Shown here: in pieces, positions 11,397 through 28,836 of the stretch
Layout of the letters: every line of letters starts with the position of its first letter
Numbering within the stretch: the first letter of the stretch is position 1
Source: Dehalococcoidia bacterium
GTDB taxonomy: Bacteria > Chloroflexota > Dehalococcoidia > Plut-88900
Direction: 5' to 3'
NCBI GenBank assembly: GCA_965249275.1
Contig: CBDFLQ010000006.1
Span: forward strand, 64,001-128,000
Length of the DNA stretch: 64,000 nt
Notes under the pieces: model-generated
Told to the model about the DNA's origin: nothing
The model's input: only the letters and a program-made list of their open reading frames with translations
The model's database searches: none
Program-made: the position numbers and the translations under genes

Positions 11397-12460
11397 TGGA
11401 CAATTCTTCTCTCTCTCCCTCGAATGAAAGCAGGCGCGGATCGGGCCTGAGGCGCCTGGGCCGCATTCTGGCCTCTCCATTTTCCAGGTCCCGCCGCGAA
11501 GGTCAGATCCGAGTGATCCAGACGTCTCCCGAAATCGCCAACCAGAACACCCCCAGAGGTAGAAAACTGAACATCAAAAGGAACAAGGCTTCAACAGGGT
11601 CCGGTGTGTACATTGACGTCGAGAACCTTCAGGGCGAGGCCCAGGACCTCATTTCAACCCTCATGTTTAACTGGCCCCACCCCGCTCCTTCCCCTTCTCG
11701 TCTGACCCTCTACGTCCGTGCAGACCAGGTCGAGCTTTGGCGTCTATGGGCCGTCGACCAATTTAATAACGTACAGGTCATCGTCAAAGGCATCCAGCAC
11801 TTCAGCCGGGACTCCTCCAAGAACTCCGCCGACATCGCCATCGCCACCAACGCCATCGCCGATTTCGTGCGCGGCAGGATTGCTCATGTTGTCGTCTTGA
11901 GTGACGACAGCGATTTCATATCCCTCTATGCCTCCATCCACGACGAAGTAGACCAGAACGAAGGCGCCACTCCGTTCCTATGGGTGGTCACGGACCGCCA
12001 CAAGTCACTCTCCGCCAATGTCAAGCAGTTCGTCCCTCGGAATATCCTTCACGTGATATCCGCGGATGTCCGCTCCCCCAAATCCCCCCCACCGCCCCCA
12101 CCCCTCCGGGCTAGAGCCCCCATCTCAAGACGTCCCGTATCCCCAACTCCCCCACCCCCATCCGCACCTCCGACTCCGCCACCCCTTACACCCGTCCCTT
12201 TGGGTAGCCCCTGGGCCGACATGGCCCGAATTATTGTCCGGGAGCGTCCTGTCGGCGCCTTCAAGAGCACTGACTGCCAGGACATCATCCGACGCCACTG
12301 GTCCGGCCACCGGATGGCCAGGGCAGGAGGCGGCACTTTCGGCACCGAGTTCAAAAAAAGCGTCTGGCCGGAGCTTGAAAAACTTGGTGTAAAAATCCCT
12401 AACCTAAACCGGAAACCCGTTACCTACGAGATGACCAAAGAGGCCAAAGCAGCGGTCTAG
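11396..12460 (+). CDS. NYN-domain (PIN-like) protein with Pro-rich linker
   Basis: VYIDVENL, SKNSADIAIA..A, VVVLSDDSDFISL. Confidence 0.75.
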   Translation: MDNSSLSPSNESRRGSGLRRLGRILASPFSRSRREGQIRVIQTSPEIANQNTPRGRKLNIKRNKASTGSGVYIDVENLQGEAQDLISTLMFNWPHPAPSPSRLTLYVRADQVELWRLWAVDQFNNVQVIVKGIQHFSRDSSKNSADIAIATNAIADFVRGRIAHVVVLSDDSDFISLYASIHDEVDQNEGATPFLWVVTDRHKSLSANVKQFVPRNILHVISADVRSPKSPPPPPPLRARAPISRRPVSPTPPPPSAPPTPPPLTPVPLGSPWADMARIIVRERPVGAFKSTDCQDIIRRHWSGHRMARAGGGTFGTEFKKSVWPELEKLGVKIPNLNRKPVTYEMTKEAKAAV

Positions 12461-24115: not shown

Positions 24116-25096
24116 CTACCCGGTTACCCTAATCACCCACACGGCGGGAAGGCCGCTAGCAATTTGTTCCCAGCTGTCTCCCGCATCCTCACTAGCGAAC
24201 AATTCCCCATCCGTTGTGCCGGCGTAGACCGCACCCGGTGTAACAGGGTCCGCAACCAGTCCCCTCACCATTGCGTGAAGTCTGTCCGGCAACCCGTTAC
24301 CGAGCCTCTCCCAAGTCGAGCCCGCATCTCGGCTCCTGTAGATCCGCGCCAGCGCTCCACCCGGCCCTCCGAAGGTTGTCGGGTTGTCCGCCGCTGCTCC
24401 TATGTACAGCAGATTAGGGTCTCGGCTGTCCAAGATAATGGGGTGGGTGTAGGGGTTGTCCATTCCACCCTGCAGGTGCTCCCAGTTCCGGGCCCCGTCC
24501 GTCGAACGGTAGAAACCGTCGCCCGTCGTGGAGTACATCACCTTCGAGTCCCGCGGATGGGAAAGGATATAGTGAATGTCTTCGTAGATGCCTTCGCCGT
24601 AGCTCTCCCACGTCTCACCGCCGTCCCCGCTCCGGATAAGCCCCCCCACCTCCACCCCTGCAAATACCGTGTCCGGCTCATCCGCTACGAAGTCGAACGT
24701 GCGAACGTGGGATATGAAGGGAGGTGCGGGGAATGACCACGTCGGGTAGGAGGGCAGATCCTTCACCGCCTTCAGCTCGACCCAGCTTTCGCCCCGGTCC
24801 CGGCTCCTGAACACAGCCGCCGGTTCCGTGCCGGCAAAGACCGTGCCGGACTGGTGCGGGGAAACGCCCAGACCTCTGATATCCCCCTCCAAACCTTGAG
24901 TCCAGGCCCCCGATGGCGAATCGGCCCAATAAACGCCGTCCTTAGTCACACCCGCATACAGCCGTCCCGAGGCATCTATCTCCAGCTTCTGCACCCACTT
25001 CCCGTCCATCGACTCAGCGGACTGTCCCCATGACCCTTTCTCCTTCTCCATGACCATGATCCCCGACTCAGTTCCCAACAACAGCTTCTTAGTCAT
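24116..25096 (-). CDS. BNR/Asp-box beta-propeller protein
   Basis: Repeated SxDxGxTW boxes (RSRDRGESW, RSGDGGETW, RSTDGARNW, RSRDAGSTW, ASEDAGDSW); AGTEPA. Confidence 0.85.
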   Translation of the reverse strand: MTKKLLLGTESGIMVMEKEKGSWGQSAESMDGKWVQKLEIDASGRLYAGVTKDGVYWADSPSGAWTQGLEGDIRGLGVSPHQSGTVFAGTEPAAVFRSRDRGESWVELKAVKDLPSYPTWSFPAPPFISHVRTFDFVADEPDTVFAGVEVGGLIRSGDGGETWESYGEGIYEDIHYILSHPRDSKVMYSTTGDGFYRSTDGARNWEHLQGGMDNPYTHPIILDSRDPNLLYIGAAADNPTTFGGPGGALARIYRSRDAGSTWERLGNGLPDRLHAMVRGLVADPVTPGAVYAGTTDGELFASEDAGDSWEQIASGLPAVWVIRVTG

Positions 25097-25428
25097 GCCC
25101 GCTCCTCCTGCTTGTCATCGGCCTCCATTGTTTCATTGACTCGCTTCGCCATGAGGTCCGGTCGGATTCTAAGTTCGCCCCGCCGATAGGCCATCACAAT
25201 CTCCGGGTCCACCTCTATGGCGGGGCGCATCTGGGCGAAGTCCTCCGCGGTTAGCTCCGGGTTGTCTGGGTCTCGTGCGATGCCAACGTCGATGGCCACT
25301 TCCTCACCATATAGCGTCTCTACCTCCTCGAAATCCATTTCCAAAGCGGCTAGTTTCTCAACCAGCGCTCTGTCGATTTCTACTTCGCCGGGTGCGGGCG
25401 CGGCCTCATTCGATTTACCGCTCAGCAT
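25093..25428 (-). CDS. BrnA-like antitoxin with atypical or missing C-terminal RHH
   Basis: Overlaps the brnT stop; DPDNPELTAEDFAQMRPA motif; no recognisable DNA-binding tail. Confidence 0.55.
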   Translation of the reverse strand: MLSGKSNEAAPAPGEVEIDRALVEKLAALEMDFEEVETLYGEEVAIDVGIARDPDNPELTAEDFAQMRPAIEVDPEIVMAYRRGELRIRPDLMAKRVNETMEADDKQEERA

Positions 25429-25675
25429 ATTCCTTGCGCTCCTTGGGTTTCGCAATCCTGAAACTTATGACACGCCTCCGTTCGCCCCGAATAACGTATA
25501 CCAAGTGATGGAGTCGGCCTTTCAAATAACCTGTGGCAGTCAATCGTGGCTCGGCATACCCTTCACTTGGCCGGATTAAAGCCGTATTCCACTCGAATTC
25601 GTAGACTGAGTAAAAGTCGACCTTGTGCTTCTGAAGGTTCGCTAATCGCTTTACCTCATCCCACTCGTATTCCAA
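25415..25675 (-). CDS. brnT: BrnT-family toxin
   Basis: YEWDEVKRLANLQKHKVDF, EPR..ATG, RRVISFRIA..KERKEY. Confidence 0.9.
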   Translation of the reverse strand: MEYEWDEVKRLANLQKHKVDFYSVYEFEWNTALIRPSEGYAEPRLTATGYLKGRLHHLVYVIRGERRRVISFRIAKPKERKEYAER

Positions 25676-25795
25676 GGTTCAACTATAAGCCCTGTAGGTG
25701 GGGCTATCAACTCTAATGTGTATGACACAAGAATCACAGCGTCTCAATCCCTTTCCTGCTCCCGACTTTCGATCAACTTCTCTCCGTCAGACGGC

Positions 25796-25954
25796 TTATT
25801 GAGTACTGCTAGTCCTCTTGATCGTCTTAATCGTCCTCCGCGCCGCCTCGCGTGCCCATTCTATTTCTTGCTCCAGGTTGGGAACAGATTTCAACTCACC
25901 TCGTTCGAACTTCTCAAGAATTTCAAGCTCTTCTGCGTCTAAATTCTGCTTCAC
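25796..25954 (-). pseudogene. Truncated CopG-type antitoxin remnant (52 aa, absent from the ORF track)
   Basis: GAGGTG RBS then GTG: MKQNLDAEELEILEKFERGELKSVPNLEQEIEWAREAARRTIK...; stops where the RHH (INIRL) would begin. Confidence 0.6.
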
Positions 25955-26071
25955 AATTGCCACCTCAATCCCATTGTAATCCGTACACGCTTTGGAAGTT
26001 TGAGCCTATTCTAATCACACTACCAAAATGGCGACTTCTGTGTCGTAATTTAGCAAATTAGAATCTCTACC

Positions 26072-27249
26072 CTACCCCGTCCCCAGATACTCCAGCGCCG
26101 CTTCCGTCATCACCTTCAACCCGACCTCCAGCGCCCGCTCGTCGAAACCGAACGTCCCGCTGTGATGAGGCCCGTACTCCCCCTCCTCATCCCCACCCCC
26201 GACGATGAAGTAGCACCCCGTCACTTCCTTCTGGAAGTACGCCATGTCATCGCCACCCATTGATGGCTCGCAGTCAATAACGTTTTCATCTCCAATGGCC
26301 CGAGTTGCGGCGCTGCGGACCAAGGCCGTCATTGCGGGATCGTTCATAACCACCGGGCTCTGATAAATGTCCTCAAATGCGTACGACGCCCCCGCCGCGG
26401 CCGTTATACCGCTCAGCACTTCTTCAATCCGCCCCATGACCCTGTCCCGCGTCCCGTCGTCAAAGGCCCGTACCGTGCCCTTTAGCTCGACCTCATCAGG
26501 GATTATGTTGAACGCCGTCCCGCCCCTTATCATCCCGATGCTCAGCACCGCCGCCTCCAACGCACCCACGTTCCGGCCCACTATCTGATGCAGTGCACTC
26601 ACTACCTGACCCGAGACCAATATCGGGTCGATCAACGATTCCGGGTGGGCCGCGTGACCTCCGGTCCCCTGGATTCTGATCGTGAACTCGTCCACGCTGG
26701 CGAACATACCCCCACCCTTACCCCCACCTTGCCAACGTCAAGCCCATTGATGATGTGAAGGGCCAGGGCCGCATCTACCTTCGGGTCCTCCAGCGCGCCC
26801 GACTCGATCATCCCCAGGGCCCCGCCCGCGGTCTCCTCCGCCGGCTGGAAAGCGAACTTAACATTCCCTTTGAGCTCCCCCCTCATCCCCACCAGCACCG
26901 ACGCCACTGACATAGCCACGGCTACGTGTCCGTCATGGCCTCAGGCATGCATCTTCCCCGGCTCACGAGAGCAATAGTCCGCATCGCTGTCCTCCTCGAC
27001 GGGCAACGCGTCCATGTCCGCCCTGATGAGCAACGTCCTCCCACCCGACCCCCCTCTCAGCAGTCCTGTAACCCCCGTACCCCCCACCCCAGTCTTCACC
27101 TCCAGCCCCAGTTCCCTTAACCCATCTGCCACCATCCCCGCCGTCCTCTCCTCCTCGAAAGACAACTCCGGGTGGCTGTGAATGTCCCTCCGAAGTGCCA
27201 CCATTGAGGGTATAACTTTCTCGTATGCGTGGTTCAGGTCTAGCGTCAT
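26072..27249 (-). CDS. M20D amidohydrolase with in-frame TGA (26941-26943) at the HACGHD Cys and a 1-nt frameshift near 26709-26713; candidate selenoprotein, alternatively a pseudogene
   Basis: RRDIHSHPELSFEE, LLIRADMDALP, GKMHA-U-GHDGH, FQPAEE, GGHAAHP, GTAFNII, GTVR, MGGDDMAYF, HH..F.FDE; three tracked ORFs join to about 392 aa. Confidence 0.85.
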
Positions 27250-27679
27250 GGAAAGTCTCCTTGAATATGGACTAGTGCAGCCCAGGCTAAGCGGATTCTA
27301 TATCACGCCCCGAGCCCCATCCAATACCCCCACCCCACCCCTCTATAGACGCAACCATTGTGGCTGCCCTGCCCCTTCCCTCCGTCATTCCAGTGCACCG
27401 ACACGGGAATCCAGAAATGACCTACTCGCGTTCCCTTCCAACTGTGACATCAACCCCTTGCTCCACCCCACACCCCATCCTATATAATAGTCCCATGCCA
27501 GCGTGCTCTTCCCTCTCTTCCACTCGGTATCCTTGCCCTCGGGAAAACGCGTGCAAAAACGTTTTCTTTCCGCAAATCAATCAAAGCAGGCACGAGTTTT
27601 GATTGTAACTATCAAAACTCCCCATTTTGACAAGATGCAAAAACCATCCAGTGTCCCCTCCATCTGTGACCCCCGCCCC

Positions 27680-28154: not shown

Positions 28155-28207
28155 GATTGTACGTTAGTGTTATACTGGCATCACATCACAGTCAAAAAGG
28201 AGTTACA

Positions 28208-28450
28208 ATGGCTGTAAATCTCTCCATTAGAGAAGTTCCCGACGATTGGGCTGAAAAGCTGAAAGAAAGGGCAAGGCGCAACCACCGCTCGCAGCAGGGA
28301 GAACTGCTAGCAATACTTGAAGAAGCCCTCAGGCCCGGACGCCTATCTATAGAAGAAGTTCACCAAAAGATTCAAAGTATGCATTTACGCACACCCGATG
28401 AATCTACCCAATGGATAAGGGAAGATCGAGATGCCGGGTATAGTAGCTGA
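28208..28450 (+). CDS. FitA/Arc-like RHH antitoxin
   Basis: VNLSIREVPD...LKERARRNHRSQQGELLAILEEA, IREDRD tail; AAGGAG RBS. Confidence 0.85.
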   Translation: MAVNLSIREVPDDWAEKLKERARRNHRSQQGELLAILEEALRPGRLSIEEVHQKIQSMHLRTPDESTQWIREDRDAGYSS

Positions 28451-28814
28451 TGCATCCGTCCTAGCCGCAATTGCCTTCGGAGAACCCAATAGGTTGCAAG
28501 CACTTGCCCTCGTATCGGGCCATGAGATTCATGCTCCGTCCCTCATGGCATTTGAGATGACCAACATTGCTTGGAAGAAGATTCTTAGAAACCCTTCTCA
28601 ACATCTGACTACATCAAAAGGGCTTGATGCGATGCTCAGCGGAGCTATCTATTGGACTAAAGTGGACTTCAATAAGACCCTCGAATTAGCCCTCGAGACT
28701 GGACTGACCGCCTACGACGCCAGTTACCTCTACCTGGCTCAGACCCTCAGCATGCCGATAGCCACCTTCGACAGGAAATTGAGCTCTGCAGCCCAAGCCC
28801 GAGGCATCTACTAG
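28431..28814 (+). CDS. vapC: VapC-family PIN toxin
   Basis: IVADASVLAA, EMTN, LTAYDASYL.LA, ATFDRKL. Confidence 0.9.
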   Translation: MPGIVADASVLAAIAFGEPNRLQALALVSGHEIHAPSLMAFEMTNIAWKKILRNPSQHLTTSKGLDAMLSGAIYWTKVDFNKTLELALETGLTAYDASYLYLAQTLSMPIATFDRKLSSAAQARGIY

Positions 28815-28836
28815 CCTACCCCCCCACCCCGCCCCC

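Follow-up and report, generated by a model that had tools for sequence, protein, structure and literature searches.

A TGA codon at the metal-bridging cysteine position of an M20D amidohydrolase: a probable selenocysteine-for-cysteine hydrolase in Dehalococcoidia

Can selenocysteine (Sec) take the place of the cysteine that bridges the two metal ions of a hydrolase? To our knowledge, nearly all known selenoproteins are redox enzymes, and in the cases known to us in which selenium ligates a metal (FdhA and the [NiFeSe] hydrogenases), that metal is redox-active. The question is raised by an M20D amidohydrolase gene in a Dehalococcoidia bacterium, which lies at positions 27249-26072, on the minus strand, of the 64,000-nucleotide (nt) stretch analyzed here (GCA_965249275.1, contig CBDFLQ010000006.1, positions 64,001 to 128,000; hereafter, the window), and which carries both an in-frame TGA and a one-base frameshift. 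Based on comparison with related sequences, we consider it highly probable that this is the gene of an M20D N-acyl-amino-acid amidohydrolase/carboxypeptidase with Sec in place of cysteine and with a selenocysteine insertion sequence (SECIS) element inside its coding region.

The TGA codon, its conservation, and the active site around it

The open reading frame (ORF) starts at an ATG (27249-27247) preceded by GGAG (27260-27257), and reads MTLDL...GKMHA, followed by the TGA (26943-26941) and then, in the same frame, by GHDGHVAVAMSV...FQPAEE, such that the motif around codon 103 is GKMHA-TGA-GHDGH. Each element described in the initial annotation of this locus, namely, the TGA at the cysteine of HA-C-GHD, the minus strand, and the frame continuing on through FQPAEE, was found where it had been placed. 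Read through the TGA, residues 16-181 match positions 1-167 of TIGR01891 with 182.5 bits (cut-off 153.75), and positions 169-366 of the same model are matched with 158.9 bits (cut-off 153.75) by a further ORF, at 26707-26072, that lies in a different frame. PF01546 (Peptidase_M20) and PF07687 (M20_dimer) both exceed their Pfam cut-offs, and, in a profile search of the window's own genome (G000, an assembly of 2.9 Mb that is 87% complete, compared to 3.0-4.0 Mb in congeners), no other gene reaches the TIGR01891 cut-off. Of the NCBIfam models, carboxypeptidase CpsA (NF040868) and TIGR01891 score highest for either half; however, the CpsA scores (197 and 154.7 bits) fall far below the equivalog cut-off of 500, and the substrate of the window enzyme can thus not be transferred from CpsA. 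No selenoprotein-specific model was matched in this NCBIfam search.

One alternative explanation takes the TGA for a plain nonsense codon in a locus that is decaying across the clade. We searched for the N-terminal part of the gene in 61 genomes (G000 and 60 relatives, E ≤ 1e-20) and obtained a match in 19. In the window's genus (G000-G008) and one sister genus (G009), the match in each of the 10 genomes has exactly one TGA, at the identical codon of the alignment, while the other 10 matches, from nine more distant genomes, have no TGA and carry TGT or TGC at the position of codon 103; no match to the N-terminal part was obtained at this threshold in two additional genera of the same taxonomic family. 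The nine orthologues from eight species of the genus and from the sister genus, which are 96% down to 66% identical to the window gene, are all uninterrupted apart from the TGA, comprise 390-392 codons with the TGA at codon 103, and in most cases have GGAG upstream of the start. None of these close relatives has TGC or TGT at the codon, an outcome that the initial annotation had named as one that would refute its reading. Further afield, all 80 of the best homologues in contigs representing one genome per species encode cysteine at this position (TGC in 57, TGT in 23).

The ratio of nonsynonymous to synonymous substitution rates (dN/dS) has a median of 0.133 upstream of the TGA and of 0.075 downstream of it (35 pairs each), at synonymous divergences (dS) of about 0.8-3 between orthologues. 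A nonsense codon could not have survived such divergence with the 287 codons downstream of it under constraint, and the comparison thus indicates that the TGA at codon 103 is not decay. What speaks for decay comes from the databases, where gene callers stop at the TGA: the cluster of N-terminal fragments has 52 members, of which all 15 members listed are 101-102 amino acids (aa) long, and the best 15 clusters (71-95% identity) in a collection of 5.8 billion proteins are C-terminal fragments of 269-282 residues covering 69-72% of the query, with full-length matches starting only at ≤54% identity. Public records of these genes thus end at the TGA and are split there by gene callers. Set against nine of nine orthologues without another lesion, the dN/dS downstream of the TGA, ligand residues that are all invariant, an identical codon that is TGA in several unrelated clades, and a hairpin specific to the TGA forms (the last three are taken up below), decay across the clade is hardly credible.

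The enzyme is related to proteins of solved structure, namely, YxeP of Bacillus subtilis (1YSJ, E = 1.3e-78), 4EWT (E = 4.4e-72), Arabidopsis ILL2 (1XMB/2Q43, E = 2.1e-68) and CsAga of Corynebacterium striatum (also N-AGA; 6SLF, E = 7.5e-47), and matches to these four M20D structures fix its predicted fold. The cysteine of the MHACGHD motif in 6SLF, 1YSJ, 4EWT, and 1XMB aligns with TGA codon 103. The alignments with YxeP, 4EWT and ILL2 are nearly full length with the motif conserved; however, all three encode cysteine, with neither UGA codon nor hairpin. In CsAga, according to PMC7209930, the sulfur of the highly conserved Cys-105 ligates both zinc ions, the other ligands being His-107, Glu-141, His-168, and His-370; the bridging of both metals by this cysteine is restated in a review (PMC11511702). 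The spacing of Cys-Gly-His together with the chain numbering places Cys-105 at the TGA codon, so that the bridging role that the initial annotation had ascribed to the motif cysteine is borne out for this position. CsAga belongs to the same M20D family, has the same HA-C-GHD motif, and has all of its ligand positions conserved in the window family; what sets it apart is a cysteine in the place of the UGA codon. It acts on acyl-glutamines from human sweat, a specificity of CsAga that is not implied for the window enzyme.

In a 147-row alignment, all 32 Sec rows (i.e., rows with the TGA) and all 115 Cys rows show no variation at the five ligand positions and the general-base glutamate, where we note that the first three positions are predetermined, the rows having been chosen by the motif H[AGS][C/*]GHD. 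The column of codon 103 is the only one in this alignment with cysteine in ≥90% of rows. With all ligands kept, the protein produced by read-through would have a complete active site, with a selenolate as the bridging ligand.

The hairpin downstream of the TGA and the selenocysteine machinery

In bacteria, a known precedent for decoding UGA as Sec is the SECIS element of Escherichia coli fdhF, a stem-loop directly 3' of the UGA, within the coding region, with G and U in its apical loop. In the window, ACGUAGC-CGUG-GCUAUGU can form a hairpin at 26927-26910, with a 7-bp stem and a 4-nt loop, the G of which lies 22 nt past the A of the UGA. This agrees with the initial annotation in the position of the hairpin and of the loop G at +22, and departs from it in the stem, which had been read as 8 bp closing a 2-nt loop. 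The minimum-energy fold of the 48 nt from the UGA onward has -19.9 kcal/mol (z = -1.98; 8 of 200 shuffles as good), and includes the lower-stem extension GCCAUGAC/GUCA-G-UGGC that had also been proposed. However, this extension is not conserved beyond the closest species: it is missing from the more distant orthologues L028-L032, in which CGAUG can pair with CRUCG instead. The upper stem is identical in nine of the 10 TGA-bearing genomes and altered in the last (L032). Across the nine intact orthologues, synonymous differences in a sliding window of eight codons average 0.44 over the gene and fall to their gene-wide minimum, 0.086, at codons 105-114, which is over the hairpin.

Scanning metagenomes for the motif with TGA yielded 41 stretches, 40 of which are M20D homologues that are 35-60% identical to the window's family; 23 of these are full length with this TGA as the sole internal stop, two are cut upstream by the end of a contig, and 11 run off the contig downstream. 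The family is thus wider than could be seen from the window in the initial annotation. The sequences that follow the TGA in these genes differ and again form hairpins, of two types: type A with the loop at +23 (CGUG or GGUC), and type B with the loop at +26 to +28 (GGUCU, GUC, or GGG) on stems of 7-11 bp. When all distinct contexts are subjected to one rule (at least 6 bp of stem and a loop that begins between +22 and +29), a hairpin is found in 37 of 44 TGA contexts versus 15 of 119 Cys contexts, and one that additionally has GU in the loop in 34 of 44 versus none of 119, such that, contrary to one of the outcomes envisaged at the outset, the hairpin is not common to the Cys-encoding homologues. 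For type A, 92.9% of cells are paired (13-56% with the partner slid) with two compensatory pairs, and for type B, 97.9% (13-65% with the partner slid) with four; the covariation score is reached by none of 500 shuffles in either case, where we note that the sequences share history and that the structures were derived from the very sequences counted.

On its own, the hairpin is marginal versus chance, and it becomes convincing through the comparison with related sequences. We infer from this comparison that it is a putative bacterial SECIS element of the coding-region kind to which SelB would bind. Its likeness to the fdhF element lies in the loops, as many of the hairpins of the TGA-bearing M20D genes carry GGUC or GUC there, as does a hairpin of the selD gene of G000 (see below); it differs in sequence and stem length, and the loop in the window is CGUG.

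The same data bear on a second explanation for the TGA that involves no selenium, namely, that of a split enzyme composed of a 102-residue N-terminal piece and a piece of about 280 residues restarted at an internal GTG or ATG. There is in fact an in-frame GTG nine codons past the TGA (ORF 26632..26919), and fragments of about 280 aa stand in the databases as predicted proteins. Such a division would, however, lose the bridging ligand, His105, and the GHDGH segment from both pieces, even though these are invariant. Moreover, the restart position is not conserved, with the other TGA-bearing clades differing after GHDGH (TAIGLMAA, TAVAVV), and the hairpin and its covariation would be left unexplained. 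We therefore regard a split enzyme as very unlikely.

Recoding as Sec presupposes the corresponding machinery, which the initial annotation had proposed to look for. Profile searches of G000 detected selA (541.3 bits, cut-off 267.9), selB (369.4 bits, cut-off 242.25) and selD (388.7 bits, cut-off 125), the first two of which are free of internal stops. The selD gene (contig C2:14217-15140) contains exactly one TGA, at the known Sec site CAG-U-ASK, and is thus itself a selenoprotein gene, with the hairpin GGACC-UGGUCCA-GGUCC behind the TGA. The fourth component, the tRNA-Sec gene selC, was not found in G000 using ARAGORN or RF01852: ARAGORN lists 44 tRNAs, none with the anticodon UCA, and the best RF01852 match (48.1 bits) is a tRNA-Ser(UGA) gene. 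A sub-threshold match at C5:385421-385511 (34.6 bits) was considered as selC and rejected, as it has GCC at the anticodon position and no cloverleaf fold. In contrast to G000, five of five relatives tested have a 95-nt tRNA with the anticodon UCA, which ARAGORN calls tRNA-SeC and which reaches 65.8-67.3 bits with the tRNA-Sec model. Searching G000 by blastn with the relatives' tRNA-Sec and its 3-kb locus gave no match. Because the 3-kb locus of a relative is unmatched as a whole and the assembly is 87% complete, we attribute the missing tRNA-Sec to an assembly gap.

The lack of this gene in the assembly is also what could be said in favor of UGA being read as Trp, Cys, or Gly rather than Sec, through a reassigned code or near-cognate suppression. 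However, none of the 44 tRNAs of G000 has a UCA anticodon that would read UGA as a standard amino acid, the UCA tRNA of the relatives is a tRNA-Sec by model score and by ARAGORN, and the selA, selB, and selD genes show the pattern of stops described above. In addition, 14 of the 23 full-length metagenomic forms terminate in TGA, and TGA is thus an ordinary stop in those organisms. Insertion of a standard amino acid is accordingly about as improbable as a split enzyme.

We observed further unusual tRNAs on contig C5, where two 89-nt genes (C5:382659-382747 and 383323-383411) have a long variable arm (class-II shape) and the anticodons GCC (Gly) and UGC (Ala). The two genes are 660 bp apart, in a stretch with 51% G+C compared to ~59% for the genome, and the 91-nt element at C5:385421-385511, with its 34.6 bits on the tRNA-Sec model, lies ~2 kb beyond them. 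Possibly, this is a foreign island that carries unusual, allo-tRNA-like tRNAs.

History of the family and the frameshift in the window copy

Within the phylum, an M20D homologue (E ≤ 1e-60) is present in 213 of 400 further genomes (214 of 401 including G000). Among the 150 matches listed, the TGA is found only in the window's own, with the other 149 having no internal stop; there are 120 further matches beyond these 150, and the tally includes the genomes G394, G097, G228, G324, and G281, which are flagged as unpublished and enter into no other result given here. The TGA form is interspersed with the Cys form in the family tree. On a FastTree phylogeny of the 147 rows, the Sec label needs eight changes, of which at least six are forced by well-supported branches, and on an IQ-TREE phylogeny of 46 representatives (leaving out near-duplicates as well as L165 and L196, which have no hairpin), there are six changes between Cys and Sec, at least four of them forced. 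The approximately unbiased (AU) test rejects a single clade of 16 Sec rows, a group named after the first tree had been seen, with a log-likelihood difference of 232.8 (p = 4e-43). A Cys form (L033) is the sister of the window's own clade. L163 stands for a large metagenomic Sec clade; its own database record is a 286-residue fragment, and its nearest full-length relatives (62-68% identity) include records labeled Planctomycetota, which suggests that the Sec form is not confined to a single phylum.

The M20D frame of the window copy is interrupted, whereas that of nine of nine orthologues is not. The interruption falls in the G-run at 26713-26709, which counts five G in the window and six in the closest relatives, and at which the TIGR01891 match splits (167/169), confirming the missing base that the initial annotation had placed in this run and had explained by either a homopolymer assembly error or decay. 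We compared the region across Logan contigs (rather than raw reads) from four runs of four studies, which include relatives at 90-99% likeness and mix strains, so that the G5 or G6 allele is not assignable to the exact strain. The missing base is present at a depth of 18.8 of 37.9 in run X1 (about half, 19.1 of 37.9, being without the extra base), 74.2 of 74.2 in X2, 20.6 of 20.6 in X6, and 32.9 of 38.4 in X7 (5.5 of 38.4 without it). We note that X1 may be the source sample of the window assembly. In two RNA runs (X19 and X20), 0.07 and 0.05 of the sampled words were present.

It may thus be that the copy of the window strain is a true pseudogene, through a one-base deletion in the G6 run, in a family that is nevertheless real. 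This fits the split of the TIGR01891 match and the contigs without the extra base in X1 and X7, and it also fits the surroundings: when ~16 kb around the gene are aligned to two congeners (91-92% identity), the frameshift is the sole clear indel that breaks a coding sequence (CDS), which makes a true lesion possible. On the other hand, X2 and X6 hold the intact allele only, the G5 contigs of X1 would not be independent if it is the source sample, and the exact record of the shifted-frame product of 211 aa comes from one contig only, the window's own, with the other members listed from its 125-member cluster being mostly 276-300 aa, plus 191 and 91 aa. In addition, the copy has no second lesion, and its identity with the nearest intact orthologue is 94-96% in either half of the gene. 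The shift is therefore private to the window assembly, with most public contigs being intact, and we lean modestly toward an assembly error over a lesion of the strain, which leaves a pseudogene copy as a substantial, if somewhat less favored, possibility.

Taken together, a number of observations weigh against the reading of this gene as that of a selenoprotein. In the window itself, the frame is broken, the tRNA-Sec gene is missing from the genome assembly, and the ~16 kb compared with two relatives show no general excess of homopolymer errors. As for the hairpin, its single-sequence fold is weak (z = -1.98), an Rfam search of window positions 26700-27100 (E up to 10) gave no family match, and covariation of the extended 15-bp hairpin within the genus alone is not significant, with 275 of 500 shuffles reaching the score; seven of the 44 TGA contexts have no hairpin at all, and one of these (L170) is not M20D. 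An additional early stop is present in four of the 40 metagenomic genes. The derivation of the hairpin structures from the sequences counted and the naming of the AU group after the first tree belong here as well. In spite of these points, the Sec-for-Cys hydrolase proposed in the initial annotation is supported on each of the three counts that it had singled out, with TGA kept in intact frames by the relatives, a hairpin particular to the TGA forms, and selA, selB, and selD above their cut-offs in the genome, the last of these counts being incomplete in G000 with regard to selC, which is present in the relatives.

Regarding the exceptions, the M20D loci that lack a hairpin at the usual place are L165, L172, L186, L194, and L196, and also L176. 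The early stops are found in L168, L169, L176, and L181; two are TGA, reached after 161 and 203 codons, and two are TAG, reached after 43 and 120. Loci with an early stop or without a hairpin may be pseudogenes, assembly errors, or carriers of other SECIS forms.

The features of the locus are collected in Table 1. The gene is flanked by those of a BNR-repeat protein, a BrnT toxin with a small upstream ORF, an IscA-like Fe-S assembly protein, and a ribbon-helix-helix/PIN pair, which are not visibly linked to it in function. The BrnT-family toxin and an overlapping ORF of 120 aa (25093-25675, minus strand) resemble a toxin-antitoxin pair, as do the FitA-like ribbon-helix-helix antitoxin and the PIN-domain protein on the other side (28157-28814, plus strand); a small indel at 28778 lies near the end of the PIN gene, and is the only one within an annotated ORF in the vicinity that seemed of relevance. 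About 650 bp downstream of the amidohydrolase gene (~25429-26080) do not align to the congener G005. The IscA/HesB-type Fe-S assembly protein (PF01521; 27749-28090, plus strand) has a Gly/Cys-rich C-terminal tail and encodes cysteine; HesB-like proteins are a known selenoprotein family according to PMC13188914. Finally, the motif CCCCACCCC occurs at 25 sites in the window compared to 3.08 expected (none of 100 shuffles reaches 25), with 22 of the 25 on the plus strand and many of them intergenic (for example, 27328-27341, 28822-28830, and 12096-12158); the C-runs of these sites hold several indels between congeners.

Table 1. Features of the M20D amidohydrolase locus, in window coordinates
Feature	Position	Strand	Basis
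Ribosome-binding-site-like GGAG upstream of the ATG	27257..27260	-	sequence reading
5' part of the CDS (codons 1-102 and TGA)	26941..27249	-	ORF and translation; TIGR01891 and PF01546 matches through the TGA
TGA codon 103, proposed Sec codon at the Cys position of HA-C-GHD	26941..26943	-	comparison with homologues
Proposed SECIS hairpin: conserved upper stem and loop (26927-26910) and weaker lower stem	26899..26935	-	conservation, covariation
G5 run with one-base deletion shifting the frame (G6 in closest relatives)	26709..26713	-	alignment
3' part of the CDS in the shifted frame: dimerization domain and C-terminal catalytic part, stop included	26072..26707	-	TIGR01891, PF07687, PF01546

The proposed enzyme and its place among selenoproteins

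We propose that the UGA at codon 103 is recoded cotranslationally as Sec. The hairpin, which begins ~13 nt past the UGA and has a G/U-containing apical loop, would be bound by SelB loaded with Sec-tRNA(Sec), and the ribosome would insert Sec and continue to the normal stop, to yield a protein of ~390 residues. The metal site of this protein would be binuclear, with the selenolate, His105, Glu139, His165, and His363 as its ligands and Glu138 as the general base. The window copy, with one G fewer in its G6 run, would then be a mis-assembled or recently inactivated allele. While the conservation of the codon and of the ligands, the selection on both halves of the gene, the constraint on the hairpin with its covariation, and the Sec machinery are observed directly, we infer the insertion of selenium, the metal bound, the substrate, and any benefit from selenium. 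Possible benefits would be a lower pKa, a softer ligand, or a bridging ligand resistant to irreversible oxidation.

The closest precedents for such an enzyme are FdhA (Mo/W-Se) and the [NiFeSe] hydrogenases, in which the selenium of Sec ligates the catalytic metal and Sec and Cys forms alternate (PMC13188914). These are, however, redox enzymes with one Se-metal bond, whereas in the window family the selenium would bridge two metals in a hydrolytic, non-redox site. According to the same review, most selenoprotein families have thioredoxin-like folds or UxxC/CxxU motifs. Among the 119 prokaryotic selenoprotein families and subfamilies in the review's own Table 1 (May 2026), there is no M20 peptidase or amidohydrolase (PF01546, PF07687, TIGR01891); neither this review nor the deep-Sep paper mentions amidohydrolase, hydrolase, M20, peptidase, or aminoacylase, and a 2022 selenoprotein review has no mention of amidohydrolase, hydrolase, or peptidase. 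A full-text literature search, which covered neither subscription-only papers nor supplementary candidate lists, found no Sec-containing M20 enzyme. PMC5658510 and PMC2276186 mention both M20 and selenium, but no such enzyme. Sapep (PMC2937973) was set aside as a comparison, being a PepV-like enzyme without the motif cysteine, and PMC7804941 was of no help as to the metal ligands. The Sec-M20D family is thus absent from the catalogue checked, and supplementary candidate lists may hold it.

Taking these observations into account, we think it probable, although with less confidence than for the window gene itself, that Sec-M20D is a widespread and uncatalogued selenoprotein family, in which Sec bridges the metals of a binuclear non-redox metallohydrolase, and in which the Cys-to-Sec change became fixed on at least four to six separate occasions, apparently in more than one phylum. 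If this is so, selenium would repeatedly have been favored by selection at a hydrolytic metal site. It might, for example, guard the bridging ligand against irreversible oxidation, or alter which metals are bound and how tightly. As all 15 of the close clusters listed are fragments, the enzyme would be mis-annotated wherever it is present. If the reading is correct, a selenolate that bridges two Zn/Mn/Co-type ions in a hydrolase extends the known chemistry of Sec. Furthermore, Sec and Cys forms that are closely related, stand side by side, and have switched repeatedly constitute a clean natural experiment, in which the contribution of selenium to a non-redox metal site could be tested directly.

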